A stretch of DNA of 64,000 nucleotides, from NCBI GenBank assembly GCA_963734535.1, contig CAVTHS010000008.1:64001-128000 (forward strand), written 5' to 3'. The notes below the pieces were generated by a model. The model saw only the letters and a list, made by a program, of their open reading frames with translations, was not told the DNA's origin and made no database searches. This DNA is from an uncultured Chloroflexia bacterium. GTDB taxonomy: Bacteria; Chloroflexota; Limnocylindria; Limnocylindrales; CSP1-4. Of the stretch, positions 8,174-62,311 are shown in pieces; the first letter of the stretch is position 1, and the number at the start of each line of letters is the position of its first letter. The translations under genes and the position numbers were made by a program.

Positions 8174-8442
8174 CAATCTCTCCCTCCGTTGCGCCTGCTC
8201 GCACGGCGAGCCCGATGCACCGCCACGGGTGGCGTCGCCCCGGCACGTCGAGCACCCGCCGCTCGGCGTGCCGGCGTCGCCTGCCGGCACGGTACCGTGC
8301 CCGGGTGCACCTGGGAAGCCCTGTGCCCGGGCGAGGGTGTCGCTCGATCGGAGCAGCGCGCCCTCCCGCATGGCACCATCGCGTGGTCGCCGGTCCACGG
8401 CCACGCCCGGCAGATGCAGCGCGGAGGTCCAGGGAAACCACC

Positions 8443-45298: not shown

Positions 45299-46048
45299 TC
45301 ACTCCGCGGGCGGCACCGTCCCGACGTGGAGCGTCACGATCCCGCCGGACATGCCGGTCCACGTCACTTCGACCAGGCCGGCCTCGCGCATGAACCCGGC
45401 GATCGCCTCGGGCGCGGGGTAGCTCCGGACGCTGCGGACGAGGTACGCGTAGGCGCCGCCCTGCCCGGCGATGCGACCGATCACCGGCACGATCCCGTCG
45501 AACCAGGCCCGCAGGATCCGGGCGAGCCGGCTCCGCGGCCGCGCGATCTCCAGGCAGACGACGCGCCCGCCCGGACGCACGACGCGGCGCATCTCCGCGA
45601 ACCCGCCTCGGTAGTCGGGCAGGTTCCGCATCCCGAACGCGATCGTGGCGGCGTCGAAGGATGCGTCGGGCGCGGGCAACGCAAGGGCGTCACCGACCAC
45701 GAACGTCAGCCCCGGACGACCAACGAAGCGGCGCTCCGCCACCGAGATCATGCCAGGGCTGATGTCGACGCCGAGCACCTCGCCGCCCGGCTGCGCGCGA
45801 CGGTGGAGATCGGCCGCGACCTTGCCCGTGCCGGTCGCGATATCGATCGCGCGACCGCCCGGCCGGAGCCGTGTCATCGCCACGGCTCGCCGCCGCCAGC
45901 GCGGCTCCTGGAACGCGCTGATCACGAGGTTCATCGGGTCGTAGACGCGCGAGATCCCGTCGAACATCGAGCTGACCTCGCTGCTCGGCGCGGCGTTGCC
46001 GCGCTCGGTCGCGAGGCCGGATGGAGCGCCGTCGCGGGGCCTGGTCAT
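45299..46048 (-). CDS. menG: Demethylmenaquinone methyltransferase
   Basis: MFDGISRVYDPMN, IDIATGTG, IAFGMRN and AYAYLVRSV; last gene of the men operon. Confidence 0.92.
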   Translation of the reverse strand: MTRPRDGAPSGLATERGNAAPSSEVSSMFDGISRVYDPMNLVISAFQEPRWRRRAVAMTRLRPGGRAIDIATGTGKVAADLHRRAQPGGEVLGVDISPGMISVAERRFVGRPGLTFVVGDALALPAPDASFDAATIAFGMRNLPDYRGGFAEMRRVVRPGGRVVCLEIARPRSRLARILRAWFDGIVPVIGRIAGQGGAYAYLVRSVRSYPAPEAIAGFMREAGLVEVTWTGMSGGIVTLHVGTVPPAE

Positions 46049-46924
46049 GGGTGCAGATCCGGGGCGGCCGGGCGGCCGGCCGCGCTCGGGGCCGTGATGC
46101 CGGCGTCGGCGATCGCGTCGAGGATCGCGGCCGCGACGGGCTCGGGATCGGTGATCGGGGCCGGGTGTCGGAGCCCCTCGAGCGACACGAGGCGCGCTCC
46201 CGGGATCCGGGCGACCACCGCCCGGGCGATCGGCGCGTAGAACGGCTCGCTCGCGGTGCCGGTCAGGACGATGACCGGGGCGGCGATCCGCGACAGGCCG
46301 GCAGGTTCCAGCCCGCCGAGCGCCGCATCGGCGAACGCGCCTTCTCCCTGCGCCGCGAGGAACGTCCGGGCCCGGGCGGGCAGCGCCGCCCAGGCCCCGT
46401 CGCCCGCGACCCCGTCGAGGAATGCCGCGGCGGCGGCAGCCCCTCCGCCCGACGCGAAGGCCCGCTCCGTCGCGGTCGCGACGGCCGCGAACGCCGCCCG
46501 GGTCTCTGCGTCGGCGAGCGGCCCGTACGGCGGCTCCCAGGCGACGACCGCGCGGATGCGCCCGGGAAGCCGGGCCGCGGCCTCCAGCGCGACGACCCCG
46601 CCGAAGCTGTGCCCGACGAGGACCGCGGCGGTCATTCCCTCGGCGTCGAGCAGGGTGGCGACGTCGGCGACGTGGACGGCAACGTCGAGCGGCCGCGGCA
46701 CCGGCACGCGCGCTCTCCCCGCCCCCCCGCCGATCCAGGGCGAGGACGGGCCCGCGGGCGGCGAGCAGCCGGGCCAGGCCGGTCAGCTGGATCGACGCCG
46801 ACAGGGTGGCGTGGAGGAGGACGATGGGCGTCTCCTGTCCGGCCCCGTCAGCGGCGGCGAACACGCGGCAGGCCAGCGTGATCCCGCCGGGAGCGCGGAG
46901 CGTGCGCATCGACGCACCGATCAC
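46045..46924 (-). CDS. Alpha/beta hydrolase within the men operon, +1 frameshift near 46715
   Basis: VLLHAT, ALDRRG, LVGHSFGG and GLRHPAP; coupled to menE and menG. Confidence 0.82.
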
Positions 46925-48544
46925 GCCGGCACCTCCGTGGCCGCTGCCGGCGGCGGGTTGTCCGCCGGTGGCAGAGCGGCGGGGCAGCGTGCCGTCGGGG
47001 CGCAGCGTACCGTCGGCAGGCAGCGTGCCGTCGGCGGGCGGCGGCCATCGGTCGCAGGCGCCACGTCGACGGGCGGTCCGGGCGCCAGGGCCGCGCGCAG
47101 CTCCGAGCGGCGCAGCTTCCCGGACCCCGTCCGTGGCAGCGACGCAACGAGGATGAATGCGGCCGGGACCTTGTACGGCGCCAGACGAGCAAGACAGAAC
47201 GCTCGCAGGTCGGCGTCGGTCGGCACCGGCGCACCGGATCGAAGAACGACAGACGCCACCGGCACCGCCCCCCAGGTCGGGTCCGCGCGACCGGCGACGC
47301 CGGCCTCCGCGATCCCGGGGTGCTCCGCGAGCACCGCCTCCACCTCGGCGGGGAAGACGTTCTCGCCTCCCGACACGATCAGGTCGTCGCGTCGATCGAG
47401 CACGTGGAGGAAGCCGTCCGCGTCGATCCGCCCCGCGTCGCCGGTCCGCAGCCAACCGTCGGACTCGAACGCGGCGGCCGTCGCCTCGGGCCGGCCGAGG
47501 TAGGCGGAGAACGCGGCCGGCGTGCGGACCTGGATCTCGCCCGTGCCATCCGCGGCAGGGTCAGCGATCCGGACCTGGACGCCGGGCAGCGGCCGCCCCG
47601 CCGATCCGGGATGGGCCGCGACGTCGCCGGTTGCCAGGGCCGACACCCCCGAGCCCGCCTCCGTGAGGCCGTAGGTCGGGACCACGGGCCAGCCGGCCGC
47701 GAGCGCCCGCGTCACGAGGTCCGGCGGGATCGGTGCGCCGCCGAGGAGGACGGCCCGCAGGTTCGCGAGCCGCGGTCCTCGTGCCTCGCGGTCGACGGCG
47801 TCGAGCAGCCGCACGAGCTGCGTCGGGACGAGCGAGACGTGGCTGGCGGGCCGCTGCCGGAGCGCGTCGAGCACGGGCTCGGGGTCGAATGCCGGGACGG
47901 CGCGCAGCGGCACGCCCGCCCCGATTGCCCGCCATGCCACCCCGAGCCCCGCGACATGGGCGAGGCCAAGACAGAGGACCCAGCCCGTTGCCGCCGGAAG
48001 CGCTGCGGACCACGCGGCGGCGCTCGCCGCCATCGCGGCATGGGAGAGCAGGGCGGCCTTCGGGCGACCGGTCGTGCCCGACGTCAGGATCGCGACGGCA
48101 GGTGCGTCCGGATCGAACGCGTTCGCCGGCGGGCGTGCGCTCGGAGCGCCCGCGCCGAGGGCGTCGAGCGGGATCGTCGGGACGCCGAGGGCCCGTGCGC
48201 GGTCGAGATGCTCGGCGTCGTGCACGGCCAGCCGCGGCCCGATCACGACACCCGCGGCCGCCAGCTCGGGCGCGGTGAGGGTCGTCCCGAGCGGCGCCAC
48301 GCATGCCCCGACCCGACCCGCGGCCGCCAGCAGCGCGACGGCGCTCGCCGACGGCGCCGCGATGCAGGGCCACCCGGTCGCCGGGGACCACCCCGGCGGC
48401 AACGAGGCCGGCCGCCAGCGCGTCGGCGTGCGCGTCGAGCTCGGCGAAGGTCCAGGTTCGCCCGGGCTCCATGATCGCCGGTGCATCGGGCGTCGACCCG
48501 GCGTGACCGCGGAGCGCGAGCGGCAGGATCATCGCCGTGTTCAC
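46921..48544 (-). CDS. menE: O-succinylbenzoate-CoA ligase, +1 frameshift near 48364
   Basis: TSGTTGRPK, TYGLTE, RTGDAG, SGGENV and PRTGSGK. Confidence 0.9.
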
Positions 48545-49737
48545 GGGGTCGCCTCGACGAACTCCGCGGCGAAGCGCGCCACCGCCGGACGGCTCACGCG
48601 GACCCGCAGGCGACCGGCTCCGTCCCCCCCGGGCGCGTGCATCCGTCCGGATTCCACCACCAGCGGCTCGTCGAGCAGATCGTGATCCAGCAGCCCGAAG
48701 GTCGCGAGGCCGTGGGCGAGCGGTGCCGGGAATCGGGAACCCGGCACCAACGGAAGCACGATGGCTGCGCTCAACGCGGCCGAGATGCCGATGCCCGTCT
48801 CGAAGAGCGTGCTGACCACCACGGGCACCCCGTGGGCCGCGGCGGCCGCCGCGATCTCCGCGACGGCGACCGGGCCGCCGACGCGCGCAGGCTTCACGAC
48901 CAGCACGTCGGCCGCTCCCTCGGCGAGGAGCCGTCGCACCGCGACGATCGACGCGGCCGCCTCGTCGGCAGCGACCGCGACCTCCACGCGGCGCCGCAGC
49001 TCGGCCGCCCCGGCACCGTCGTCCGCGGCAAGCGGCTGCTCGACGTACTCGATCCCAAAGCGCGCAACGGCCTCCAGGCGCTCCTCGGCCGTGGGCAGGT
49101 CCCAGGCGCCGTTCACGTCCAGGCGAAGGCGGACGTCGGGACCCACCGCGGTCCGGATCGCCCGCACCCGGGCCACGAGGTCGACCGTCTCGCGCTCGAC
49201 GCCCGCCTTGAGCTTCAGGGTCGTGAAGCCGGCCTCGATCGCCTGGAGCGCGGCCTCGGCGCCGGCAGCCGGCCCGCCGAAGCCGATCGTGCCGTTGACG
49301 GGCACACCGGGCGGGATCGTCCGATCGGCGGTCGGAGCCCCGGCGCGGCCAGGCTCCGCTCCACCTGCGACCTCGCCATCCCCGGCCGGCAGCAGGTCGA
49401 AGCGCGCCGCGTCCATCGCGGCGCGGAAGGCGCGGCCCGGCGTCCCGAGCAGCTCGAGCTCCTCGACATCGGGCACGTCGCCGGACCGTGCGCGGTCGGC
49501 GGCCTCGCGGATCAGCCGGGCCAGGATCGTCTCCTCGACCTCGGTCGCGTCCGGCTCGAGGACCGCCTCGCCGACGCCGATCCGGCCGTCCGGACCGGCC
49601 ACGAACAGGATCCACGCCTCGCGATGGAGCCACATGCCCGTCGCCGTCGCGAACGGCCGGCGGAACGGGACCCGGACGCGAACCGCCGTCAGGCCGGTGA
49701 CCGGGACCGCCTCGAGCGTCATTCGCAGGTCGATCAT
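48541..49737 (-). CDS. menC: O-succinylbenzoate synthase
   Basis: Enolase-superfamily KLK, RLDVNGAW, EQP, ADE and VKP motifs; operon context. Confidence 0.88.
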   Translation of the reverse strand: MIDLRMTLEAVPVTGLTAVRVRVPFRRPFATATGMWLHREAWILFVAGPDGRIGVGEAVLEPDATEVEETILARLIREAADRARSGDVPDVEELELLGTPGRAFRAAMDAARFDLLPAGDGEVAGGAEPGRAGAPTADRTIPPGVPVNGTIGFGGPAAGAEAALQAIEAGFTTLKLKAGVERETVDLVARVRAIRTAVGPDVRLRLDVNGAWDLPTAEERLEAVARFGIEYVEQPLAADDGAGAAELRRRVEVAVAADEAAASIVAVRRLLAEGAADVLVVKPARVGGPVAVAEIAAAAAAHGVPVVVSTLFETGIGISAALSAAIVLPLVPGSRFPAPLAHGLATFGLLDHDLLDEPLVVESGRMHAPGGDGAGRLRVRVSRPAVARFAAEFVEATP

Positions 49738-50648
49738 GCGGGCCAGCCGCGGAGGGCGAGGGCGGCCGCGAAGAGCACCCCGAACGCGAGGTCGAGCCGC
49801 GCCGTGCCCTTGAGGACCGGGTTGAGCTGCCGCGGCTCCCGGAAGTCGCGGACCGTCCGGAGGAGCGGCCCGACGAGCGGGGCCGACAGGAGGGGCAGCA
49901 GCTGGACGATCCCGAAGCCGGCGAGCATGAGCCCGATCGGGACGGCGAACGCCGCAGCGAGCAGGAACGCGTATTCCATCGCCGTCGCACGGCGGCCCAT
50001 CATCACGGCCAGCGTCCGCTTGCCGGCAGCCGCATCGGTCGGGATGTCGCGCAGGTTGTTGACGACGAGGATCGCAGTCGTCAGGGCGCCGATTGGGATC
50101 GCGGCGACCGCGAAGAGCGGCTCGAAGCGGAGCGCCTGGAGGTATGCCGTCCCGACGACCGCGACAAGGCCGAAGAAGACGAACACGAAGACCTCGCCCA
50201 GGCCGCGGTACCCATACGGCCACGGCCCGCCGGTATAGGCGAGGGCGGCGACGATCGCGAGCAGGCCGAGCCCGACGATGGCCGGGCCGCCCACCCAGGC
50301 GAGCCACAGGCCCGTCAGCGCCGCGAGCGCGATCGCCAGGCCGATCGCGACCTCCAGCTGGCGCTCGGTCACGAGCCCGGCCGACGCGACCCGGGTGGGC
50401 CCCGCCCGATCCGGCGTGTCGGCGCCGCGCCGGAAGTCCGAGAGGTCGTTGGCGAGGTTCGCCACGACCTGCAGCAGCAGCGCGACCGCCAGGCAGCCGA
50501 GCGCGGTGTCGACGCGGAACGCGGCGCCCGCGGCCAGGGCGGCGCCGAGCCCCACGACCACGCCGCTCGCCGCGGCCGGGAGCGTGGCCGGGCGGATCGC
50601 CAGGAGCCAGGTCCGCGCGGCGGAGGGTCGGGCGGCGATGGACGTCAC
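49734..50648 (-). CDS. menA: 1,4-dihydroxy-2-naphthoate polyprenyltransferase
   Basis: [30 protein letters not shown] and [10 protein letters not shown]. Confidence 0.95.
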
Positions 50649-51475
50649 GGCCGCCGCGGGTACTTCGAGTAGTCGGGATCGCGCTTGTCCAGGAATGCGC
50701 GCGAGCCCTCGTGGGCCTCTTCGGTCGTGTAGTAGAGGCCCGTGGCGTTGCCGGCAAACTCCTGGAGCCCGGCCAGCCCATCGGTCGCCACGAGAAACGC
50801 CGACTTGAGGAAGCGGATCGCGGTGGGGCTCATGGCCAGGATCTCGTCCGCCCAGCGGATTCCCTCGGCCTCGAGGTCGGCGAGCGGGACCACGGCGTTG
50901 ACGAGGCCCATCGCCAGCGCATCGGCCGCCGAGTACCGGCGGCAGAGGAACCAGATCTCCTTCGCCTTCTTGTCGCCGACGAGACGCGCCAGCAGGCCGA
51001 TCCCGAACCCGGCGTCGAAGCTGCCGACCCGCGGGCCCACCTGGCCGAAGATCGCGTTGTCGCTCGCGAGCGTCAGGTCGCACACCACGTGGAGCACCTG
51101 GCCGCCGCCGATCGCGAATCCGTTGACGAGCGCGATCACAGGGATCGGCAGCGAGCGGATCTGCCGCTGGAGGTCGAGCACGTTGAGGCGGGCCAGCCCG
51201 TCGCCGCCGACATAGCCGCCGGCCGGGCTCTTGTAGTTCTGGTCGCCGCCGGCACAGAACGAGACGTCGCCGGCCCCCGTCAGCAGGGCGCAGCCGATGC
51301 GCCCGTCGTCCCGGATCCTCGCGAACGCGTCGATCATCTCGGCGACCGTCTCCGGGCGGAAGGCGTTGCGAACCTCGGGCCGGTCGATCGTGACCTTCGC
51401 GATCCCGGTGCCGGAATGCTCATAGCGGATGTCGTGATACTCCGCGGCGCGGGTCCACGTGACGGATCCGGTCAT
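50645..51475 (-). CDS. menB: 1,4-dihydroxy-2-naphthoyl-CoA synthase
   Basis: [28 protein letters not shown] and [10 protein letters not shown]. Confidence 0.96.
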
Positions 51476-52333
51476 GCGACGTGCTCCTCCGAGACGAAGT
51501 CGAGAACGAGGCGGTTGAACGCTGCGGGCGCCTCGAGGTGCGGGGCGTGGCCGGTCGCCGTCGATCACCGCCAGGCGGGCGCCGGGAATCCCGGCGGCCA
51601 CGGCCTCGGCGCGCTCGCGCGCCGGATCGTCCGCTCCAACGATGACGAGCGCCGGCGAGGAGACCACGCCGAGCCGGTCGTGCAGCGGCACCATCGCACC
51701 CTGCCCCGCGTTGCGGAGGCTGGCTGCCAGGCCGGCCGGATCGTGAGCCAGGCGGATCTCGCGGACGGCGGCCCGGGCGACGGCCCCCAGGCGGGTCGCT
51801 CCCGCGAGGACCGGCGTGCGTTCCCAGGCGGCGACGAACGCCACGATCCCGTCGCGCTCGAGGGTTCCGGCCAGCGCCTCGTCGGCGGCGCGACGGGCCG
51901 ACCGCTCGCGCGGGTCGGCGATGCCGGCCGATGGCGCCTCCAGGATGAGGCGCCCGACACAGGCGGCGTGCGCGATCGCGAGCCGAAGCGCGACTCGCGC
52001 GCCCATCGAGTAGCCGACAACGTCGGCCCGCTCCTGACCGAGGGCCCCAAGGAGCGCCGGCAGGTCGTCGGCCGTCCGTTCGATCGTCGCGCGAGCCGGG
52101 CCCGCCGGATCGGCACGGTAACCGGGAGCCCAGGCGGTGCCGCCGTGACCGGGCAGGTCGGGCGCGATCGCGGTGCGTCCGGCGGCGGTCGCCGCGGCCA
52201 TCAGGCCGGCCCAGCTCCGGCCACTCCCGGTGAACCCGTGGAGGAGCAGCAGGGCCGGTCCCGAGCCGGCGATCCGGACGACCCAGTGGAGCCCGGCGAT
52301 CTCAAGGTTCACGAGCCGCGGGTCGGCGCTCAC
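51472..52333 (-). CDS. menH: SHCHC synthase, +1 frameshift near 51555
   Basis: [22 protein letters not shown] and RRAADEALA; C-terminal GHAPHLE in the next frame. Confidence 0.9.
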
Positions 52334-54189
52334 GCGTCGAGCTCCGCGAGCGCCGCGGCAACGGCCGACGCCGCCTCCGCGTGCAGCTCGACGTTGCGTG
52401 CACGGTCCGTGCGGAGCTGGAGCACGCTGACCCCGGTCGCGACCAGGCTCTCGGCGAGCGCGGTCCGAAGCCCGCGGGCCCCGACCGGGCGGTACGTCGC
52501 CCCGAGCGCCTCGACGATCGGCCCGAAATCGATGCCGTGCGGCGTTCCGAAGAGCTCCTCGTAGTGCTCCGGCAGGCCTGCGCCCGGGTCGTCCGTCCGC
52601 GCCTGCGGCAGGAACGAGAAGATCCCGCCCCCGTCGTTGTCGACGAGAACGATCGTCGCCGAGAGCGCGTGACGCTTCGCCGCGGCGAGGGCGTTCAGGT
52701 CGTGGAGGAACGAGAGGTCGCCGACCACGAGCGCAACGTGACCCACGCCTGCGGCCGCCGCGCCGAGCGCGGACGAGACCACGCCGTCGATCCCGTTCGC
52801 GCCGCGGTTTGCGAGCGGCCGGATCGCCCGATCGCTCCCCGCCAGCCACGCGTCGAGATCGCGGACGGGCATCGAGCTGCCGGCCCACAGGATGGCGCCG
52901 TCGGGAAGCAGCTCGCCGAGATGGCCGAACGGCGCCCCCTCGAACGCCTCGCCGCGCGATTCGACGCCCGCCAGCCAGGCACGAAGCGCAGCGTCGGCCG
53001 CGCGGTCGGCGGCGAGCCAGCCGTCTCGCCAGGTGTTCCGGCCGGCCGGCGCCAGGGGCTCCCCGGGCTCGTCCGGGTCGCGCGTCCCGACCGAGCTCGC
53101 GAGCGCGTCGGCGAGCGCCCTCGCCGTGTCGGTCGCGTCCGCATGGACGAACGTCGTCGGGAGGAGCGCCGGCTCGCGGTAGCCCCCGTCGCCGTCGACC
53201 ACGACCTGGTCCGGCGCCGCATCCATCACGAGCGTGCCGAGCGGCTTCGAAGTCGGGGCCGCGCCGAAACGGATCACGAGGTCCGGCAGGTGCGTGTCGC
53301 GCCAGGGCCCCGGCCGGCAGAGGAGGTCGCCGCGGGCGATCACGTGCGAGCGGTCGTGGGGACCGCAGCGGGCGCCGGACAGCGGGTCGGCAAGGATCGG
53401 GAAGCCGGTCGCCTCCGCCAGGCGGGCCAGCGCGGCCGGCAGCGCGCGATCGTCCTGCGGCCCGGCAACGATGAGCCCGCGTCGCGCCGCGGCGAGGCGC
53501 TGCGCAAGGGCGGCCACGGCCGGGGCGGCCAGCGTGCGCGGTCCGGTCACGACGTCCGTGAACGGCCGGGCCGGCTCGTCGACCGCCGCTTCGTGCGGCC
53601 GCAGGTCGCCGCCGGGGACCAGCGGCTCGCGGAACGGGATGTTCAGGTGGACGGCGCCCGCCGGGCCCGCGCACGCGGTCGCGACCGCTCGGCCCGCGAG
53701 CGATCGGACGTGGCGGCGCGTCTCGGGCGCCGCGTCGAGGAGCGGCAGCTCCGCGGCCCACTTCGCGTGGACGCCGAAGATGCGAGCCTGGTCGATCGCC
53801 TGCGGCGCACCCCGGTCGCGCAGCTCCGGTGGGCGATCCGCCGTGAGCAGGACCAGGGGCACGCGCCCGAGCGTGGCCTCGACGGCAGCCGGCAGGAGGT
53901 TCGCGGCGGCTGTCCCCGACGTGACGAGGACCCCCGTCGCGCTCCGCGACGCGCGGGCCAGGCCAAGCGCGAAGAAGCCGGCCGCTCGCTCGTCGGACAG
54001 GACGCGAACCCGGATCCCGGGGTGCATCCGCAGCGCGAGCGCGAGCGGCGTCGAGCGCGATCCGGGGCAGACCACGACGTCGCGCATGCCGGCCCGGACC
54101 AGCTCGTCGACGAACGCCCGGAGCGCGACGATATCCGTTGCGGCCGAGGCCGCGGCGTCCGTCGCGGCCGTGGCCGCGACGTCCGTCAT
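52330..54189 (-). CDS. menD: SEPHCHC synthase
   Basis: [37 protein letters not shown] and GDLSFLHD. Confidence 0.96.
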
Positions 54190-54238
54190 CTGCGCCACCC
54201 CGGCGCGCGGCGCGTCGGCCGCGCGCCCGGCTCGCCCG

Positions 54239-55684
54239 TCACTCGCGCGTCTCGGGCTCACGGCCCAGCGCGGAGACGACCGGCCGAAGCTTCATTCGCG
54301 ACTCCTCCCACTCGCGTGCCGGGTCGGAGTCGGCCACGATCCCGCAGCCGGCGTAGAGCGCCGCGTCGCGACCCGACACCAGGCCGCAGCGGAGCGCGAC
54401 CATCAGCTCACCGTCCCCGTCGGCCCCGAGCCAGCCGATCGGGCCCGCGTACCAGCCGCGCTCGATCCCCTCGTGCTCGGCGATCATCTCGAGGGCCAGG
54501 TCGCGCGGCTCACCTCCGACGGCCGGCGTCGGATGGAGACGTTCGGCGAGGCCGAGGAGCCCGGCCTGGTCGCGCAGCCGGCCGCGCACCGGCGTCACCA
54601 GGTGCTGGACGTCGCGCAGCGGGAGGATTCCGGGCTCAGCGCCGACCTCGAGCCTCTCGGCGAGGGGCGCCAGGCTGGTGCGCAGCATCTCGACCACGAC
54701 GGCGTGCTCCTCGCGCTCCTTCCCGCTCGCCATGAGCGCCGCGGCGAGGGCCGCGTCCTCCGCGGTCGTGGACCCGCGAGCCGCCGAGCCAGCGATCGCG
54801 ACCGTCTCGAAGTCGCGCCCGTCCGTTCGGACCAGCCGCTCGGGCGTGGCGCCCAGGAACGTCCGGCCGCCCCGGACGAAGGCGTAGATCGTGCCCTCCG
54901 GGGCGCCCGCGGCCAGGCGGCGCAGCGCGTTCTCGACATCGATCTCGATCGAGGACCGGAGGTCGACGCGGCGCGCGAGCACGACCTTGTCCAGCCGGCC
55001 CCGGCCGACGGCGCCGGCGAACAGGCCGACGAGCCGATCCCAGCCGGCCCGGTCCGGATGCTCCCCGAGCCGCGTCAACGGCAGGTCGGCCGGCCGGGCG
55101 ACCACGGCCCCCCTGGCGGGGCTCCGTGCTTCGGCGCGCGCGACGAGGGAATCCCAGTGGCGTTCGGCGGCCCGGGGATCGCGACGGTCCGGCTCCTCGG
55201 TCTCGGCGATCGTCACGTGCGTCGCCCCGTCCGCGCGGGTGACGGTCAGCGCCGGCAGGACGAGCGACGCTGCCCCGAACGGGGCCCACGGGTCGCCGGT
55301 GGCCGGTGGGGCGCCCGTGAAGCCGAGGCCGCCGAGGAGGACCGGCCCAACGCCGCGCGGCGATCCCGCCGGGACGTCGATCGCCGCTCCCACCAGGCGC
55401 TCGTGCCACGCCGACGCAGCGCGTGCGAAGCGATCGGCGCCCTCCGGCTCCACCGACCAGGCGCGCCCGATCCCGACGATCGCGAACCCGGCGGACGGCT
55501 GCAGCCAGAGGACGGCCTCGAGGTCATCCTCGCGGGCGGCGGCGAAGAGGCTGATCGGGTCGACGGCCCGGGCGGCCCGTGTCCACGCGCGGAGCGAGCC
55601 CGGCGAGCCCGGGTCCGCGAAGCCGCCGGGATCCCCCACCCTGTCCGGCGAGCGCGCGGCTCCGGGTCGCTCGACGACGGTCAC
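54239..55684 (-). CDS. menF: Isochorismate synthase
   Basis: KVVLAR, GATPERL, KEREEH, LHPTPAVGG and YAGCGIV. Confidence 0.94.
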   Translation of the reverse strand: MTVVERPGAARSPDRVGDPGGFADPGSPGSLRAWTRAARAVDPISLFAAAREDDLEAVLWLQPSAGFAIVGIGRAWSVEPEGADRFARAASAWHERLVGAAIDVPAGSPRGVGPVLLGGLGFTGAPPATGDPWAPFGAASLVLPALTVTRADGATHVTIAETEEPDRRDPRAAERHWDSLVARAEARSPARGAVVARPADLPLTRLGEHPDRAGWDRLVGLFAGAVGRGRLDKVVLARRVDLRSSIEIDVENALRRLAAGAPEGTIYAFVRGGRTFLGATPERLVRTDGRDFETVAIAGSAARGSTTAEDAALAAALMASGKEREEHAVVVEMLRTSLAPLAERLEVGAEPGILPLRDVQHLVTPVRGRLRDQAGLLGLAERLHPTPAVGGEPRDLALEMIAEHEGIERGWYAGPIGWLGADGDGELMVALRCGLVSGRDAALYAGCGIVADSDPAREWEESRMKLRPVVSALGREPETRE

Positions 55685-56325
55685 CGTGTCCCCCCCGTGA
55701 CAGCGATCCTCGCCTCGGGGACGCCGGCGCTGCGCAGGAGGAGCGCGCGGAGCGGCGGGTACGTCTCCTCCAGCCGCCCGGGATCGTCTGCCATCAGCCA
55801 GCGTGCGACGACCTCGTTGAGCGCGCCGAACCACGCGACGCCGGTCAGCCGAGTGTCGAGCGGCGGGATCGCGCCCTCCGCGACCGCCTGGTCGAGGTAG
55901 CCCGCGATCATCCGGGCGAAGCGCTCGTGGAGCGCGTTCGTCTCGTCGTTGAAGGCGCGGCCGGCGCCCAGCGCGTCCAGGAAGAGCAGCCGGGCCATCG
56001 TGCGGTGACCCGCGAACGTCGCGAACACCGTCCGCAGGGCAGCGTCCGCCTTGGCGATGGGGTCGGTCTCGGCCGCGACCGCCCGGTCGACCTTCGCCGC
56101 GAGCCGATCTGCCGTCGAGCGCATCAGCTCGCGGAAGATCGCCTCCTTCGTGGCGAAGTGGAAGTAGACGCCGCCCTTGCTCGTCTCGGCCGCGGCCGCG
56201 ATCTCGTCCATCGCGGTGTCCCGGTAGCCGCGCCGCGCGAACGTGTTGAACGCCGCGTCCAGGATCTGCTCGCGCCGGGTGCGGCTCTTCTCTGCTTGCG
56301 CGCTGCCGCGTCTCTCGTCGCCCAT
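55681..56325 (-). CDS. TetR/AcrR-family regulator heading the men operon
   Basis: ILDAAFNTFARRGY...KGGVYFHFATKEAIF; GTGA overlap with menF. Confidence 0.93.
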   Translation of the reverse strand: MGDERRGSAQAEKSRTRREQILDAAFNTFARRGYRDTAMDEIAAAAETSKGGVYFHFATKEAIFRELMRSTADRLAAKVDRAVAAETDPIAKADAALRTVFATFAGHRTMARLLFLDALGAGRAFNDETNALHERFARMIAGYLDQAVAEGAIPPLDTRLTGVAWFGALNEVVARWLMADDPGRLEETYPPLRALLLRSAGVPEARIAVTGGTR

Positions 56326-56457: not shown

Positions 56458-57756
56458 TCAGGCGGAGCGGACGGCCGGCAGCGAGAGCACGAAGCGGGCG
56501 CCCCCGCCGGGCGCGTCCGTCGCCACGAGCGTCCCGCCGTGAAGCTCGGCCAGGCGGCGCGCGATGGCGAGGCCCAGGCCACTCCCTGCGTCGGCCCGGG
56601 TGCGGGAGCCGGGCAGCCGCGCGAAAGGCTCGAAGATCGCCTCGCGGGCCTCGACGGGAACGCCCGGGCCCTCGTCATCGACGCTCACCGACGCAGTCCT
56701 CCCGGTGATCGGCGCCGCGGCCACCGTCACCCGGCCCCCCGGCGGCGAGTGCCCGAACGCGTTGTCGACGAGGACGAGCAGCAGCTGGACGAGCCGGTTC
56801 GCGTCGCCAAGGACGGGGAGCGCCGTCCCGTCGTCCGGTGGCCCAACCAGCTCGATCCCGCGCTCGACGGCGAGAGGACCCGCCCGGCGGACCGTGTCGC
56901 GGGCGACCTCGGCCAGGTCGACGGGACGCCGCTCGATCGCGAGCGCGCCGCGCTCCGAGGCCGCGAGGGCCAGCAGGTCGTCGACCAGGCCGCCGAGCCG
57001 GTCGGACTCCGCCACGATGTCCGCCACGAGCGAGCGACCTTCGTCGGCGACCAGCCCCTCCCGCTCCAGGACCTCTGCGGAGGCCCGGATGATGGCGGCG
57101 GGCGTCCGGATCTCGTGCGAGGCGTCCGCCACGAAGCGCCGCTCGGTGGCGAACGCGGCGCGGATCGGGACCAGGGCCCGGCCGGTCACGAAGAGCGTCA
57201 CGAGCGCTGCGCCGGCGAGCCCGACCAGCCCGGCCAGCGTGACCGCCAGGACGAGGCTGCTCGACTGGCGTTCGTGGAGCGTCAGCACGAACCCGGCCTC
57301 GAGCCAGCCCGCCGGGTGCGCGGCGGCGCCGATCGGGAGGGTCAGGAGGCGGATCGGGACGGTCCCGTCCGCGACGGTCCGAAGGTCCCGCCCGGTCGCC
57401 CGGGCTGCTGCGACCGCCGCCACATCCGGCAGGCCCTGGCGCGACACGCTCGACGGGTTGGAGACGAGGGCGCCGGCCGGGTCGAGGATCAGGAAGAAGG
57501 TGTCCGACGCCTCCGGCGGATGCTCGTCGGTCTCGCTGTCGGTGGCCGACGGAAGCTCGCCATCCAGCCGCTGCAACTCGGCGGTGGCCGATTGCTCCAG
57601 CACGCGGTCCACGTCCTGGTCCAGCGCGGTGGTCGCGATGAGCGCGGTGGCCGCCCCGATGGCGAGGACGAGCGCGCCGATCAGCAGGAGCGTCATGACG
57701 GCCAGTCGCCGGCGTGTCGCGGCAAGGAGCCGGCCGGCGGGAGCGCGGTCGGTCAC
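56458..57756 (-). CDS. Sensor histidine kinase
   Basis: 2 TM; DASHEIRTP (H box), LVDNA, DEGPG and GSGLGLAI. Confidence 0.94.
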   Translation of the reverse strand: MTDRAPAGRLLAATRRRLAVMTLLLIGALVLAIGAATALIATTALDQDVDRVLEQSATAELQRLDGELPSATDSETDEHPPEASDTFFLILDPAGALVSNPSSVSRQGLPDVAAVAAARATGRDLRTVADGTVPIRLLTLPIGAAAHPAGWLEAGFVLTLHERQSSSLVLAVTLAGLVGLAGAALVTLFVTGRALVPIRAAFATERRFVADASHEIRTPAAIIRASAEVLEREGLVADEGRSLVADIVAESDRLGGLVDDLLALAASERGALAIERRPVDLAEVARDTVRRAGPLAVERGIELVGPPDDGTALPVLGDANRLVQLLLVLVDNAFGHSPPGGRVTVAAAPITGRTASVSVDDEGPGVPVEAREAIFEPFARLPGSRTRADAGSGLGLAIARRLAELHGGTLVATDAPGGGARFVLSLPAVRSA

Positions 57757-57772
57757 GCGACGACCTGCGCCC

Positions 57773-58456
57773 TCACGCGTCCGCCCGGAGCGCATACCCG
57801 ACGCCGCGCACGGTTCGGATGCCGGTCGCGCTGCCCAGCTCCGCCAGCTTCCGGCGCACATACGAGACGTAGAGGTCGACGACGTTCGAGTAGACGTCGG
57901 GCTCCGCGCCCCAGACCGCATCCAGGACCTGCTGGCGCGTAACGACGCGGCTCTCGTTGCGGATCAGGTAGGCGAGCAGGGCGAACTCGCGGGCCGAGAG
58001 GTCGGCGCTCCGCTCACCCACCCTGGCCACGTGGCGCTCCTCGTCGAGCTCGAGGTCGCCCGCCACGAGACGTGTCGCGGGCGCCGTGGTCGCGCGCCGG
58101 CCGAGCGCCCGGACCCGCGCCAGCAGCTCGGCGAACGCGAACGGCTTGGCGAGGTAGTCGTCCGCCCCCGCGTCGAGGCCGGCGACGCGGTCGTCCACGC
58201 CGCCGAGCGCGGTAAGCATCAGGGCCGGGGTCCGGATCCCGCGGGTCCGCAGCATCCGGAGCAGGTCCAGCCCGTCGAGGTCGGGGAGCATCCGGTCCAG
58301 GACGAGCACGTCGTACGGGACCGCCTCCGACGCGGTGGCGAGGCTGAGCGCACCGACGGCATCTCCGGCCCGGTCCACGACGTGCCGCTCTGCGACGAGG
58401 ACGCGCCGGATCAGCTCTGCCATCTTCGGTTCGTCCTCGACCAGCAGGATTCGCAT
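57773..58456 (-). CDS. OmpR/PhoB-family response regulator
   Basis: MRILLVEDE, LDRMLP, GADDYLAKPF and IRTVRGVGY. Confidence 0.95.
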   Translation of the reverse strand: MRILLVEDEPKMAELIRRVLVAERHVVDRAGDAVGALSLATASEAVPYDVLVLDRMLPDLDGLDLLRMLRTRGIRTPALMLTALGGVDDRVAGLDAGADDYLAKPFAFAELLARVRALGRRATTAPATRLVAGDLELDEERHVARVGERSADLSAREFALLAYLIRNESRVVTRQQVLDAVWGAEPDVYSNVVDLYVSYVRRKLAELGSATGIRTVRGVGYALRADA

Positions 58457-58508
58457 CGAAGGCATCGTCCGGGTCCGCGGCGACGGCGTCAACGGCCGAA
58501 CGGCATTC

Positions 58509-58540
58509 CTGTGAGAACACACATCCGCCACACACGCCGC
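58509..58540. promoter_or_regulatory. Candidate OmpR-type direct-repeat box
   Basis: CACACATCCGC CACACACGCCG (11-bp period) plus an inverted CTGTGAG between the divergent operons. Confidence 0.45.
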
Positions 58541-58625
58541 GGCCATCGCGCGAGGCGAGGCTATGCGTGTCACTCGAACCAACCGCCCGGCCGGACGGCG
58601 CTCCGCTGCCAGCCTCGCCGGGCCG

Positions 58626-59030
58626 ATGAACACGGAGCCATCCAGGATGCCCACCCCACCGACCGAGACCCCAGCTCCCCGGCGCCCGGACGTCCGCCGT
58701 CCCGCCGGCGTGAGCCGCTTCGGCGTCCTTGCGGGGATCGTCGCCACCGCCGGAACGCTCGCGGTCGCGTTCCTCGGGCTGGGCGGCCCGCCTGTCCCGG
58801 TGGCGCCGCTTGCCCTCGCCGATGCCACGGCGACGGAGCCGGCCGTGCAGCAGGTCGTCGTCAAGACCATCTACGTCCAGCTGCCCTCCCCCTCGGCCGC
58901 GCCCGTCGCCAGGCCTGCTGCCGCTCCCGTGGCGGCCGCCCCGAAGCCCGTGATCAGGGTGGTGACCAGGCAGTCCGGTGCCGGCGGCGGCGAAGGCGGC
59001 GAAGGCGGCGAGCAGGAAGGAGACGACTGA
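58626..59030 (+). CDS. Membrane-anchored Pro/Ala-rich protein, putative flavinylation substrate 1
   Basis: RR plus hydrophobic segment, VVKTIYVQ, VVTRQSGA; first gene of the apbE operon (alternative ATG at 58647). Confidence 0.75.
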   Translation: MNTEPSRMPTPPTETPAPRRPDVRRPAGVSRFGVLAGIVATAGTLAVAFLGLGGPPVPVAPLALADATATEPAVQQVVVKTIYVQLPSPSAAPVARPAAAPVAAAPKPVIRVVTRQSGAGGGEGGEGGEQEGDD

Positions 59031-59031
59031 G

Positions 59032-59499
59032 ATGCCGATCCGAACTGACCCGGCCCCCCGGGCGATCCCCGTCGCCCCCGGTCCCGTGCCGGTGCCATCG
59101 GCGGAGCTCGCGCCCGCCCGTCCGACGACGATGCCGTCGCCGGTGCCCGCCGCCGCTCGTCCGATGCCGGCCCGGCCGGACTCCGCGGCGCGCCCGGCGC
59201 CACGGCGCCCGGACCCGACCTCGGCGCGGCTCGCGGTCGCTGCAGGCGGGATCGCGACGATCTCCGCGCTTCTCGCCGCGATCGGGAGCGCAGCCGTTCC
59301 CGGCGCGCTTGCCGTGGCACCGACGACGGCCCCGGCCGCGGCCCTGCCGGTCCAGACCATCGTGAAGTATGTCTACGTGCAGCCGGGCGCCGCCGCACCG
59401 GTGGCGCCGCCGGCGGCCGTCGCGACCGTCGTGGCCACGCCGGCTCCGCGCCCGGCTCCCGTCGTCGTGGTGACTCGCCAGTCCGGCGCGAAGCCGTGA
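59032..59499 (+). CDS. Membrane-anchored Pro/Ala-rich protein, putative flavinylation substrate 2
   Basis: AGGAG RBS; RRPD plus hydrophobic segment, IVKYVYVQ, C-terminal VVTRQSGAKP. Confidence 0.75.
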   Translation: MPIRTDPAPRAIPVAPGPVPVPSAELAPARPTTMPSPVPAAARPMPARPDSAARPAPRRPDPTSARLAVAAGGIATISALLAAIGSAAVPGALAVAPTTAPAAALPVQTIVKYVYVQPGAAAPVAPPAAVATVVATPAPRPAPVVVVTRQSGAKP

Positions 59500-60533
59500 T
59501 GGCCGCGCCCGATCTCAAGGCGGAGACGGGCATGACCGCGGCAGCGGGTCAGCCGACCCCGCTGCCCCGGGCGGTGGATCGCTCGGGGGCAATGGGCGGC
59601 GGGCTCGGCATCCACGTTGCGGTCGCGCGGGATGCGGACATTCCCGCGGCCGAGATCGACGCAGGACGGGTCGCCGCCCGCGTTCGCGCCTGGGCCGGAC
59701 GCCTGACCCGGCACGACCCGAGCTCCGACCTGATGCGAGCCAACGCCGACCCGCGTGGCGCGGTGCCCGTCCGCCCGACGCTCGCCGCGGCGTTGCGTTG
59801 GGCCGCAGACGCGTCCGAGATGAGCGGCGGGATCGTCGATGCGACGATGCTCCGCGAGCGTCTCGCCGCGGAGACGCCGGCGCCGCTCGTGCCCCCGACC
59901 TTCGCGCCGCCGCCCGCCGATCCGCGCGGCTGGTCGAGCGCACTGTCCAGCCGGCCGAGATCGCGGCCCACGTGGCGTCTCGAGGCGTCCCGGCACCGCA
60001 GCGCGATCCTCCAACGCGAGCCCGGCACGGCGTTCGATCTCGACGGGGTCGCGAAGGGCTGGATCGCCGACCGCGCGCTCGCGCTGCTCGACCGTCATCC
60101 TGGCGCCCTCGTCGACGCCGACGGCGACATCGCCATCCGGGCCGCGCAGGGCGACTCCTGGGAGGTCAGCGTGGCCGACCCGCGCGCGCCGGGGGCAGAG
60201 CTCGCCGTCTTCGTCCTTCCCGGAGCCCGGCTGGGCGCGAGCTACGGCGTCGCGACATCCGGCATCAGCGTCCACCGCTGGACAGCGCAGGACGGCGAGC
60301 GGCATCACCTGATCGACCCGCGGACGGGACTTCCGGCGGCAACGGACATCGTGCAGGCGACCGTCCTCGCGGGAAGCGCCAGCGTGGCCGAGGCCTGGGC
60401 GAAGACCGCGGTCGTGCTCGGCCTGGTCGCCGCGCTCGACGTGCTCGATCGCGCGCCGGTGCTGGGGGCTATTCTGCTTGCATCCGACGGCCGCGTTCTC
60501 GCCGTCCCCCGAACCACCCGGTGGCTGGCATGA
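59496..60533 (+). CDS. apbE: FAD:protein FMN transferase
   Basis: DLDGVAKGW, DADGDI, VATSG and HHLIDPRTG. Confidence 0.92.
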   Translation: MMAAPDLKAETGMTAAAGQPTPLPRAVDRSGAMGGGLGIHVAVARDADIPAAEIDAGRVAARVRAWAGRLTRHDPSSDLMRANADPRGAVPVRPTLAAALRWAADASEMSGGIVDATMLRERLAAETPAPLVPPTFAPPPADPRGWSSALSSRPRSRPTWRLEASRHRSAILQREPGTAFDLDGVAKGWIADRALALLDRHPGALVDADGDIAIRAAQGDSWEVSVADPRAPGAELAVFVLPGARLGASYGVATSGISVHRWTAQDGERHHLIDPRTGLPAATDIVQATVLAGSASVAEAWAKTAVVLGLVAALDVLDRAPVLGAILLASDGRVLAVPRTTRWLA

Positions 60534-61459
60534 AATACCGCGGCCTCTCCCCACTCCAGCGCGGCATCTTCTGGGTTGTCCTCATGGTCGTCGTCGGTGG
60601 CGTCGTGGGCGTCACCGGGCCGCGGGCGGCTCGGGCGCTGGCTGACCTCGCGCAGGTCGCCCCGGACCGCCTGCCGTGGGTCGCGACCCGCCTCGTGGCG
60701 TTCCTCTCGTACTTCGCCATCGCCGGGTCGGTCGTGTACGGCCTGCTCCTCTCGACGAAGATCCTCGACGCCATCGCACACCGGCCCGTCTCGTTCGCGC
60801 TGCACCAGGATCTCGCTGCGATCGGCCTCGGGCTCGCAGGCGTTCACGCCGTCCTCCTCGGGCTGGACGCAGCGGTGCCGTTCTCGCTCACCGACATGCT
60901 GGTCCCGTTCGTCGCCCCGTACCGGCCGCTGTGGGTCGGAATCGGCCAGCTGACGCTCTACCTGGTAGCCGTGGTGCTCGCCAGCTTCTACCTGCGCCGC
61001 CGGATCGGGCAGCGCTCCTGGCGGCTCCTCCACTACTTGACGTTCCTGTCGTTCGCCGGCGCGACTGCGCACGGGATCCTCTCCGGAAGCGACAGCGGAA
61101 CGGCCTGGGCCTGGTGGAGCTACGTGGGGGCCACCGCGCTCGTCGTCTTCCTGACCGGGTACCGGGTCGTCACCGGGATCGTGGCCGCTCGTGAGCGCGC
61201 GGCACGGCCCGCGCCGGGAACCGCCGTGCCCGGCGCAGCGCCTCTCCTGGCGCCGGGAACCGCAGTGCCCAGCGCAGCGCCACTCCGCGCGCAGGGAACC
61301 CTCCCGCTCGGCGCGCCGCCACTGCGGGCGCCGGGGTCCGCGCCGCGGATGGCGCCTCCGTCAGGGCCGCGACCCGCACCTGCGCTGTCGCCGCTCGACC
61401 TTCGCGCGCCCCACCGGCCGGTGGCGGGAGTGCCGGAGGGCGCGCAGCCAACCGCCTGA
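60530..61459 (+). CDS. Ferric reductase-like (MsrQ-type) di-heme membrane protein
   Basis: About 6 TM with four His (ALHQD, GVHAV, LLHYL, TAHGI) and YRPLWVGIGQ; 13-aa repeats in the tail. Confidence 0.88.
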   Translation: MKYRGLSPLQRGIFWVVLMVVVGGVVGVTGPRAARALADLAQVAPDRLPWVATRLVAFLSYFAIAGSVVYGLLLSTKILDAIAHRPVSFALHQDLAAIGLGLAGVHAVLLGLDAAVPFSLTDMLVPFVAPYRPLWVGIGQLTLYLVAVVLASFYLRRRIGQRSWRLLHYLTFLSFAGATAHGILSGSDSGTAWAWWSYVGATALVVFLTGYRVVTGIVAARERAARPAPGTAVPGAAPLLAPGTAVPSAAPLRAQGTLPLGAPPLRAPGSAPRMAPPSGPRPAPALSPLDLRAPHRPVAGVPEGAQPTA

Positions 61460-61657
61460 CCGGTTGGCGCGGGACGGCGAAGCGCCGTGGGCGCGGCTCC
61501 ACGCATAGGGGTCGCCGCGGCCCCGGGCGTTACCCGCGCGGCTCCACGCACACGCGGACGCCATGGCCCTGGGCCGGCGCCCGGCCAGGCCGAACCCCAT
61601 CTCCCAGGACGTCTCCCGCGCGCCTCGAGGCGCGGGCACGCGGGAACGTGACGTGCC

Positions 61658-62311
61658 TCATACGAGGACAAGCGCGTCGTCCGGAGGCGGGAGGCCCGCG
61701 GCGAGCGCCGACCAGGCGATCCGGGCATCGACCGGGAAGGCGGCCACGAACTCGGGCCGGGCGATGTGCACGATCTCCCGGTTCGTCCGAGTGTCGGCCA
61801 CCACGATCACCAGGCGGTCGGCGGCACCGTCGCGACGCTTGGCGGCGACCCGCCGGAGCAGCGCCTGGACGTCGCGCAGGCGCGTCTCGGCCTCGATCGC
61901 GACGACCCGCCCATCCCGGACGAGCACCCCATCCCAGGCCCTCGGATCCCCGGGCGCCCCGATCGGGACCTCGGGTCGCCACCGCCATCCGGACCCGACC
62001 CGCTGGCGGAAACGCGCCAGCAGCCGGATATGGGCAGCGTCCCGGATCGGCGGACCCGCGGGGTAGGCGCGAAGCGCAACGTCCAGGCCGAGCGCCGCGA
62101 GCACGGTGGAGACTCGCTCGACGGAGACTCGAGGCGCCCGGCCGGCCTCGATGCGACTCACCGACGATCTCGACGTCCGAGCCGCTCGCGCAACCGAAGC
62201 CTGGCTCAACCCCGCCCCGAGTCGAGCGTTCATGGCCTCACGGCCGATCTCGACGATGAGCTCGCGCGCTCGGCGCCTGCCCCGATCGGCTGGACTCTCT
62301 CTCGATGCCAC
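61658..62311 (-). CDS. XRE-HTH fused to a PD-(D/E)xK-like domain (second family member)
   Basis: GLSQASVARAARTSRSSVSRIEAG; EVPIG...RAWDGVL...VAIEAETRL; leaderless GTG after CATGAT. Confidence 0.8.
   Translation of the reverse strand: MASRESPADRGRRRARELIVEIGREAMNARLGAGLSQASVARAARTSRSSVSRIEAGRAPRVSVERVSTVLAALGLDVALRAYPAGPPIRDAAHIRLLARFRQRVGSGWRWRPEVPIGAPGDPRAWDGVLVRDGRVVAIEAETRLRDVQALLRRVAAKRRDGAADRLVIVVADTRTNREIVHIARPEFVAAFPVDARIAWSALAAGLPPPDDALVLV

Follow-up and report, generated by a model that had tools for sequence, protein, structure and literature searches.

A stretch of 64,000 nucleotides from an uncultured Chloroflexia bacterium (contig CAVTHS010000008.1; the whole stretch is hereafter the window) encodes, one after the other, two small proteins with predicted membrane anchors (small1 and small2), an ApbE-family flavin adenine dinucleotide (FAD):protein flavin mononucleotide (FMN) transferase, and a six-helix, ferric-reductase-like membrane protein that is putatively a di-haem cytochrome. 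Together, the small proteins and ApbE are credible candidates for a form of flavinylation by ApbE that is new. Specifically, we propose, with a probability of roughly 0.45, that small1 and small2 serve as domain-free, non-canonical substrates of ApbE and exchange electrons with the cytochrome encoded next to them. The narrower claim that their common C-terminal T-x-Q-S-G tail is at least an ApbE-binding element is likely. These proposals build on the anatomy of the genes, the conservation of the tail, the association of the genes in one clade, and the interface predicted between ApbE and the tail, and the possible FMN transfer, its acceptor residue, the path and final acceptor of the electrons, and the compartment of modification are developed from them below.

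Both small proteins carry the peptide VVTRQSGA close to the C-terminus, coded at 58959-58982 in small1 and at 59467-59490 in small2. The two 24-nt stretches differ at five positions, all of them synonymous, which argues that the peptide has been kept and is not a DNA repeat. A sequence-only reading of this DNA had described two small genes upstream of apbE with a common architecture, and the pair does have basic N-termini with RRP, one helix, a V-K-x-x-Y-V-Q block, a Pro/Ala linker, and the VVTRQSGA tail. In small1, the basic N-terminus leads into a membrane helix (residues 25-47; 58719-58787) and the block VVVKTIYVQLP (58854-58886), followed by the Pro/Ala linker, T-R-Q-S-G (58965-58979), and an acidic Gly/Glu tail that ends in GDD. 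Small2 starts with MPIRTDP and continues with a Pro/Arg-rich N-terminus that includes RRPDP, a membrane helix (residues 67-89; 59230-59298), the block TIVKYVYVQPG (59356-59388), a linker, and VVVVTRQSGAKP at the C-terminus, with T-R-Q-S-G at 59473-59487; its ribosome-binding site, GGAAGGAG, lies upstream. The two proteins match each other by BLASTP at E = 0.001 across the anchor and the V-K-x-x-Y-V-Q block and share 31% identity in a joint alignment, and by this similarity they are distant paralogues.

The start of small1 had been placed at 58626, and we have replaced it. Its most likely start is the ATG at 58647 (MPTPPTE...), which is preceded by GGAG 9 nt upstream; start and GGAG are kept in 8/8 aligned loci, and most relatives of small1 begin MP(T/A)P. 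Each small protein has one Kyte-Doolittle peak, and the charges of its flanks, counted by hand, come to about +3 on the N-side and are neutral or acidic on the C-side. Both proteins are predicted to be single-pass with the N-terminus inside and the C-terminus outside, such that the tails would be external, because of these charges and because long Arg-rich N-termini are unlikely to be translocated. A signal peptidase might also cleave after the helix.

The earlier description of the small proteins as domain-free agrees with the searches and the structure prediction. Neither small1 nor small2 matched a Pfam or NCBIfam family, and no match to FMN_bind, DUF2271, or DUF3570 was obtained even at E ≤ 1. 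A search of the ESM Atlas with small1 returned unnamed clusters only, with scores < 0.9. AlphaFold2 (AF2), given a 58-row alignment, modelled a helix at residues 62-86 of small2 and coil elsewhere (mean predicted local distance difference test score, pLDDT, 65), so that the ectodomain appears as about 70 residues of Pro/Ala-rich coil.

The tail motif to which the sequence-only reading had drawn attention is strongly conserved beyond the window. By a word-indexed search, small1 has 42 relatives and small2 has 44, and no Pfam domain was identified in any of them. When 24 of the small1 relatives were aligned with the window protein, the T, Q, S, and G of the tail were invariant (25/25) and R was conserved in at least 90%. 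Among 30 of the small2 relatives and the window protein, the tail was kept in 28/31, the exceptions (P0077, P0083, and P0084) having apparently frameshifted C-termini. An 8-mer common to both proteins arose in 26/5000 shuffles of small2, which makes the pair alone moderately significant; the weight comes from this conservation in relatives.

A profile built from both families and compared with 1.84 billion representatives identified 59 proteins at E ≤ 0.001 (13 at E ≤ 1e-10). All were 76-208 aa in length save one of 2865 aa that matched across a low-complexity stretch, and none was a fused form; 20 members of this wider family yielded nothing significant in Pfam at E ≤ 1. Of the 49 wider-family sequences read, 41 have T-x-Q-S-G at a distance of 1-5 residues from the C-terminus. 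Two of those without it (P0104 and P0133) look truncated or frameshifted. An alignment of 58 sequences (A4), from which P0123 was dropped for its chimeric N-terminus, has T, Q, S, and G each in 58/58, its members having been chosen for carrying the motif, with 1-5 residues again separating it from the C-terminus. Between T and Q, the alignment has R in 46, T in 5, S in 4, and K, C, or Q in 1 each, and the residue after S-G is A in 22, K in 11, R in 7, T in 6, V in 5, and G in 4 of the 58. The wider consensus comprises [KR]-x-R-P-D-P-x-P-x-R-[LI]-A, the helix, V-x-H-V-x-R-Y-V-Q-L-x-P-G-Q-T-A-P-P, and P-R-V-V-V-V-T-T-R-Q-S-G-x-K-P. A comparison of the wider-family member P0115 with plasmids by tblastn gave no match.

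Three further observations concern the family at large. Some relatives of small1 have a tail duplicated by four residues, VVTR-VVTS-QSG (8022-8390 of the related locus L005; P0029, P0033, and P0042); in the complex model described below, it is the duplicated strand that pairs with ApbE. The first ten residues of small2 (59032-59061), M-P-I-R-T-D-P-x-x-R, are nearly invariant in the close family, and M-x-I/V-R-x-D-P is recognisable at the N-terminus of some wider-family members, which suggests that the extreme N-terminus of small2 may be a second, cytoplasmic interaction motif. Finally, six distant small1-like proteins that have no tail motif keep the anchor and a VVVDTVYV block and have long Asp/Glu/His-rich tails that end in GGDD; by composition, these tails look like metal-binding ones.

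The consensus for twin-arginine translocation (Tat) is S/T-R-R-x-F-L-K. Tat export of the small proteins, as suggested previously, does not hold up, since RRPAGV and RRPDPT of the window proteins do not fit this consensus and RR is often absent from the wider family. What that family conserves is [KR]-x-R-P-D-P-x-P-x-R and not RR, and we reject Tat export on the basis of sequence.

We modelled ApbE (30-row alignment) together with residues 96-155 of small2 (58-row alignment), FAD, and Mg. It had been proposed to model ApbE with the peptide; the tail of small2 was placed in the active-site cleft with a complex score of 0.92 (0.92, 0.92, and 0.93 in three runs), as opposed to 0.00 for the best of three controls, which included the small2 tail paired with an unrelated protein. 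Of 157 solved complexes, 116 attain this mark, as do 2 of 215 mismatched pairs, a calibration that is rough here because own alignments were used and small molecules were included. The runs share at least 70% of their contacts, and the pLDDT of the partner is at least 51. Confident contacts of small2 cover residues 144-153 (VVVVTRQSGA) and 128-140, and the V-K-Y-V-Y-V-Q block lies outside the modelled interface. On the side of ApbE, contacts involve G34-G35, H40, K187, D207-I212, W222-A227, V252-G256, S258-H260, Q287-T289, and the C-terminal residues 333-345. Judged from family motifs and the alignment to Ftp of T. pallidum, the contacted stretches are the conserved motifs of the FAD pocket. 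The residue pairs with the lowest predicted error join Thr148 to ApbE residues 210-212, 224-227, 252-254, and 289, and Gln150 to 254, 256, and 287; T254 of ApbE adjoins Ser255. None of the 13 solved ApbE sequences that matched the window enzyme is named as a substrate complex, in a listing that names the matched chain only, which leaves some chance that the model reproduced an already solved complex; we know of no structure of ApbE with a substrate.

The argument that T-R-Q-S retains the [S/T]-x-x-[S/T] spacing of flavinylated sites survives in part. T and S are both invariant, as the argument would have it, but the tightest contacts of the model centre on Thr148 and not on Ser151.

The assignment of ApbE is firm (Pfam PF02424, E = 1.9e-39; 136.2 bits vs a 25.6-bit cut-off), and its alignment to Ftp of T. 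pallidum shows the motifs D-L-D-G-V-A-K-G, T-S-G, and H-H-L-I-D-P. Ser255, His271, and Glu299 are spaced by 16 and 28 residues, as are the conserved Ser241, His257, and Asp285 of V. cholerae ApbE (PMC12052999). From this spacing and the T. pallidum alignment, the three residues may be the counterparts of the V. cholerae triad. Glu occupies the position of the conserved Asp in 118 of the 120 best relatives, and Lys follows four residues later (A-E-x-x-A-K) in 113 of the 120, where the T. pallidum enzyme has A-D-A-L-A-T. The site covers residues 299-303 (60390-60404), with Lys303 in the place of a Thr of the T. pallidum enzyme that we take to be a metal-ligand residue.

That ApbE has no obvious signal peptide, as noted previously, was borne out. 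No hydrophobic N-terminus was identified in the window enzyme, in the six ApbE open reading frames (ORFs) read at related loci, or in 30 aligned relatives (52-84% identity), and the window enzyme has no signal peptide or lipobox according to hydropathy and motif reading, no dedicated predictor having been used. The MGG motif is present in 112 of the 120 best ApbE matches, 93 of which have 12 or more residues ahead of it; across these 93, the highest 12-residue Kyte-Doolittle mean peaks at 1.83, with a median of 0.9. Upstream of the ApbE start, the frame contains no start codon and is Arg-rich when translated, and a hidden upstream signal peptide was rejected for both reasons. A fusion of small2 to ApbE was likewise rejected, as the two genes use different reading frames and overlap by 4 nt, and as a gap lies between them at locus L004. 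The window ApbE looks, from its sequence, like a member of a clade of cytoplasmic ApbEs, and cytosolic ApbEs do exist (PMC12052999).

The product of the fourth gene has six helices by hydropathy. The sequence-only reading had placed a four-His membrane cytochrome after ApbE, and five His are invariant in six orthologues, four of them in the pairs H92/H106 and H168/H181 spaced by 14 and 13 residues. Such a bis-His pattern is that of ferric-reductase-domain proteins. Pfam Ferric_reduct matched 6/6 orthologues below the cut-off (best E = 0.0018; 16.8 bits vs a 28-bit cut-off), and the nearest Atlas cluster (score 0.95) bears the name ferric reductase-like and has PF01794 in 33% of its members. 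A profile search of the PDB matched SpNOX only (E = 4.2), in an alignment that covers helices 4-6 and both helix-5 His, and a sequence search of the PDB yielded nothing. No nicotinamide adenine dinucleotide (NAD)- or FAD-binding domain was identified in the cytochrome, and its AF2 model, from a six-sequence alignment, had a pLDDT of 44 and was too poor to use.

Residues 1-229 of the cytochrome are almost invariant among orthologues, and the small proteins are 53-90% identical outside their motifs. Residues 228-309 (61211-61459) form a variable, low-complexity Pro/Ala/Gly tail (GC content at third codon positions, GC3, 0.78, a weaker coding signal) with a conserved P-L-D-L-R-A-P end. A predicted outer loop after the second helix-5 His (residues 185-196; 61082-61117) reads S-G-S-D-S-G-T-A-W-A-W-W and is invariant from residue 186 onward in the six orthologues, with Ser or Thr at residue 185. 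The V-K-x-x-Y-V-Q block of small1 and small2 could dock at this loop.

The four genes look, from their spacing, like one translationally coupled operon. A single nucleotide separates the stop of small1 from the start of small2, the stop of small2 overlaps the start of ApbE (GTGATG), and the stop of ApbE overlaps the start of the cytochrome gene. The 4-nt small2/ApbE overlap recurs in 4/5 loci read. G+C content of the window is about 70-77%, and GC3 is 0.86 for small1, 0.87 for small2, 0.87 for ApbE, and 0.88 for the cytochrome gene; the plus-strand frames are the coding ones because the codon-position GC is of the coding type.

The closest relatives in the genome collection are seven contigs of metagenome-assembled genomes (MAGs) labelled Chloroflexota, Chloroflexia, or Candidatus Limnocylindrales. 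Genes for a TetR regulator, a histidine kinase, a response regulator, and small1 are present in 7/7 of these loci, with the kinase gene adjoining the operon in 7/7, and the order small1-small2-ApbE-cytochrome is kept in 6/7, the contig of L005 stopping just past small1. Linkage to apbE and the cytochrome gene is therefore seen in every related locus whose contig reaches far enough. Since the seven loci come from close genomes, they indicate a stable operon rather than independent re-association. An indirect hint of linkage among further sequences comes from 17 cases in which a small-protein match and an ApbE match derive from records with an equally long longest contig (for example 3944, 9590, 8831, 2306, and 379100), some of them 2-4 kb. 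At L007 (8344-9805), small2 and ApbE are broken across several frames, as is the TetR gene at L002 (5057-5693); in contigs of the same MAG series, these breaks look like assembly indels and not real pseudogenes.

The mechanism that we propose would begin with recognition of the C-terminal [VI]-V-T-x-Q-S-G by the signal-less ApbE encoded directly downstream. With FAD as the donor, this enzyme would link FMN through a phosphoester bond to the tail, at its Thr (or Ser), and the membrane would hold a flavin at the end of a flexible Pro/Ala linker. The tethered flavins would then exchange electrons with the di-haem ferric-reductase-like cytochrome, which would move electrons across the membrane from a donor that may be menaquinol or a cytoplasmic reductant. 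A quinol donor would agree with the menaquinone-pathway genes (MenF-, MenD-, and MenE-like) upstream of the cluster. On the acceptor side, a cation, for instance a metal ion, may be held by the acidic tail of small1; together with the His/Asp/Glu-rich tails of distant small1-like proteins, this tail suggests that a metal cation could be captured. A divergent two-component system probably controls the operon. Tags of seven residues are flavinylated by ApbE, best at a protein terminus, and replacement of the Asp, Gly, or Ala of the motif only lowers flavinylation (PMC12052999), which makes a divergent tag for a divergent ApbE conceivable.

Several findings weigh against domain-free substrates. 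The canonical flavinylation motif is D-x-x-[S/T]-G-A-[S/T], in which the final S/T is the acceptor (PMC12052999), and it is absent from these tails, which read V-V-T-R-Q-S-G-A-G or -K in the window; the position after S-G-x is G, K, R, P, another non-hydroxyl residue, or the protein end, and is unconserved. A reading of the tail as a canonical S-G-A-[S/T] site was accordingly rejected, as the following residue is not S/T in either the close or the wider family. The complex score is the model's own confidence and concerns binding, not chemistry, such that a substrate, a tether, and an inhibitor would look alike; His271 is absent from the named contacts, and small2 alone was modelled. The six distant small1-like proteins without the motif (P0098, P0103, P0106, P0109, P0130, and P0135) also count on this side, as does the assignment of the cytochrome to the ferric reductase family, which rests on sub-threshold matches. 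Linkage to apbE was examined in seven MAG loci of a single clade, with regulators 92-95% identical. Lastly, ApbE looks cytoplasmic and the tails are predicted to be external, which puts enzyme and tail on opposite sides of the membrane, unless the tail is modified before translocation or ApbE is exported with it. Conceivable ways out are that the tail is modified in the cytoplasm first, that ApbE is exported while bound to the tail, or that the topology prediction is wrong.

The first of these can be developed into a fuller scheme of a flavin tag made inside and used outside. Flavinylation of T-x-Q-S-G at its Thr or Ser by a signal-less, Glu-type ApbE would take place in the cytoplasm, the tail would then be threaded across the membrane, and the cell would gain tethered extracytosolic flavins beside a di-haem cytochrome without exporting FAD; the tag would mark a wider, unannotated family (59 representative clusters). 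Taken as a whole, this scheme is speculative and has odds well below those of domain-free substrates as such.

An alternative that we consider rather unlikely is that the tail binds ApbE without being modified. The small proteins would then be tethers, adaptors, or pseudo-substrate regulators for an ApbE clade that would have lost its lipoprotein anchor, with the real substrate elsewhere (an unlinked FMN-binding protein, or the adjacent cytochrome). The lack of a signal or lipid anchor in this ApbE clade would fit such a role, and a model that speaks to binding and not to chemistry, a canonical acceptor position that is not S/T, and the missing contact to His271 would all be expected of it. 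The invariant Thr and Ser within the bound segment, beside the region of the catalytic Ser255, accord well with a substrate role, and an external tail makes no sense as the tether of a cytoplasmic enzyme. Nor did another substrate domain emerge in the window: a GC-based filter left 39 ORFs, of which 34 were scanned (29 alongside the MenF-like gene, plus 5; five short ones were left out), and FMN_bind, DUF2271, DUF3570, and NqrB/RnfD domains were absent from these 34. The cytochrome, as read from its sequence, has no canonical motif on its predicted cytoplasmic side.

Comparably doubtful is the possibility that T-x-Q-S-G has nothing to do with ApbE chemistry and serves for docking on the outer face of the cytochrome, wall attachment, processing, or glycosylation, in which case ApbE would owe its place in the operon to something else. 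V-K-x-x-Y-V-Q, as the second conserved block, lies outside the ApbE interface, which implies at least one other partner, and tails predicted to be outside, an ApbE inside, and linkage verified within one clade would all accord with such a role. It is opposed by an ApbE-tail score that is high and specific, with 0.00 for all three controls, and by the overlapping stop and start codons of small2 and ApbE. We know of no wall-sorting or processing signal of the T-x-Q-S-G form.

It is highly improbable that small1 and small2 arose from FMN-binding-domain proteins by degeneration or truncation and still use a canonical S-G-A-[S/T] site, even though S-G-A is present in both window proteins and an FMN-binding gene normally occupies such a position in MsrQ-like clusters (PMC8238504). 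The lack of any match to the three flavinylated domain families at E ≤ 1, the Pro/Ala-rich coil of the ectodomain, a residue after S-G-x that is never a conserved S/T, and an A that is itself variable (22/58) come close to a refutation at the sequence level. Chance similarity in spurious high-GC ORFs, to which a low-complexity Ala/Pro/Val composition and the shuffling result might point, has a negligible probability and is refuted by the conservation data, given the coding-type GC3 and synonymous differences in the motif, 42 and 44 relatives, a wider family of 59 members in which the motif keeps its distance to the stop codon, and a conserved start codon and ribosome-binding site.

Coordinates of the operon and its surroundings are compiled in the table. 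The longest ORF of the histidine kinase gene runs into the response-regulator gene, so that the start codon of the kinase is uncertain. All bases of the non-coding block ahead of small1 are identical in 8/8 aligned intergenic regions, in which the flanks are variable, and the block holds AACGGC twice, 8 nt apart; judged by this conservation, it may be an operator or promoter element. A promoter/terminator scan of 58300-61800 returned 0 sites and no sigma-70-like site, an Rfam scan of 58380-58700 returned 0 matches, and a repeat scan of the intergenic region detected short GC palindromes only. Genes that resemble those of menaquinone biosynthesis occupy 46045-55699 on the minus strand, just upstream of the cluster.

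Table. Features of the operon and neighbouring region, in window coordinates.
Feature	Coordinates	Strand	Remarks
small1	58647..59030	+	127 aa
small2	59032..59499	+	155 aa
ApbE-family FAD:protein FMN transferase	59496..60533	+	Pfam PF02424
Six-helix ferric-reductase-like (MsrQ/NOX-type) membrane protein, putative	60530..61459	+	Sub-threshold Pfam, Atlas, hydropathy
Helix-turn-helix gene		minus	Downstream of the membrane-protein gene
Invariant non-coding block	58486..58518	.	GCGTCAACGGCCGAACGGCATTCCTGTGAGAAC; 33 nt, between regulator gene and small1
OmpR-family response regulator	57773..58465	minus	Pfam Response_reg + Trans_reg_C; 92-95% identity in 7/7 loci
Sensor histidine kinase	56458..57921	minus	Pfam HisKA + HATPase_c; divergent from operon
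TetR regulator	55681-56325	minus	
Chorismate-binding MenF-like gene	54239-55699	minus	
Thiamine pyrophosphate (TPP)-enzyme MenD-like gene	52330-54261	minus	
Adenosine monophosphate (AMP)-binding MenE-like gene	46921-48486	minus	
Alpha/beta hydrolase gene	46045-46707	minus	

To our knowledge, all accepted ApbE substrates have [S/T]GA[S/T]-type sites within folded domains, and surveys of flavinylation have searched for such sites in folded domains together with signal peptides. If small1 and small2 are substrates, their tail would be a second recognition sequence for ApbE and they would be the first natural substrates to present the site on nothing but a membrane-tethered tail. A transmembrane cytochrome would become linked to a clade of ApbEs without signal peptides, the poorly studied Chloroflexota of soil and freshwater would add to the known extracytosolic electron-transfer systems, and the question would arise of where flavinylation occurs relative to export. 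Enzyme and tail might also provide an orthogonal pair for protein labelling. If instead the tails merely tether ApbE, they would explain how an enzyme without an anchor is positioned at the membrane.

The literature on ApbE and flavinylation that was searched, supplementary tables of PMC8238504 not included, contains no description of such a tail, and a search for 'TRQSG' and variants returned no relevant paper, the sole match concerning zinc fingers. Among described systems, the MsrQ-like flavinylation clusters (Meheust et al., 2021, eLife; PMC8238504) resemble the window locus in that apbE lies beside a gene for a six-helix, two-haem protein of the PF01794 type (putatively so in the window) and a small extracytosolic partner gene, and in that electron transfer across the membrane, possibly for iron reduction, has been proposed for them. 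In those clusters, the partner is a folded FMN-binding-domain protein with [S/T]GA[S/T], whereas the window has two disordered proteins tagged at the tail; the described clusters often include an NAD-binding domain and occur mainly in Actinobacteria, whereas no NAD domain accompanies the cytochrome of this Chloroflexota host. They were also selected for components that bear signal peptides, unlike the ApbE of the window. The window system is not an MsrQ-like member as so defined because it has no FMN-binding-domain gene and no signal-peptide-bearing components, and the filter applied in PMC8238504 would have skipped the cluster because a signal peptide or lipidation site was required.

The cytochrome resembles members of the ferric reductase superfamily (MsrQ/YedZ, NOX, STEAP; SpNOX 8qq7/8qt6) in its six helices and in the His pairs, spaced by 14 and 13, in helices 3 and 5. 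It differs from them in that it comes without a dehydrogenase domain or MsrP-type partner and in that its sequence matches are sub-threshold. The ApbE has a parallel in the cytosolic enzyme of Klebsiella pneumoniae, which likewise has no signal peptide and acts inside the cell (PMC12052999). Its substrate there is a soluble fumarate reductase with a canonical FMN-binding domain, whereas the window candidates are membrane proteins with tails predicted to face outward. As for the tail, its closest functional analogue, by analogy of design, is the engineered flavin-tag (Tong et al., 2021, as described in PMC12052999). Both are short, terminal, and domain-free peptides; the engineered tag is a canonical D-x-x-[S/T]-G-A-[S/T] sequence, whereas the tail of the window proteins, [VI]-V-T-x-Q-S-G, is natural and a candidate substrate only.

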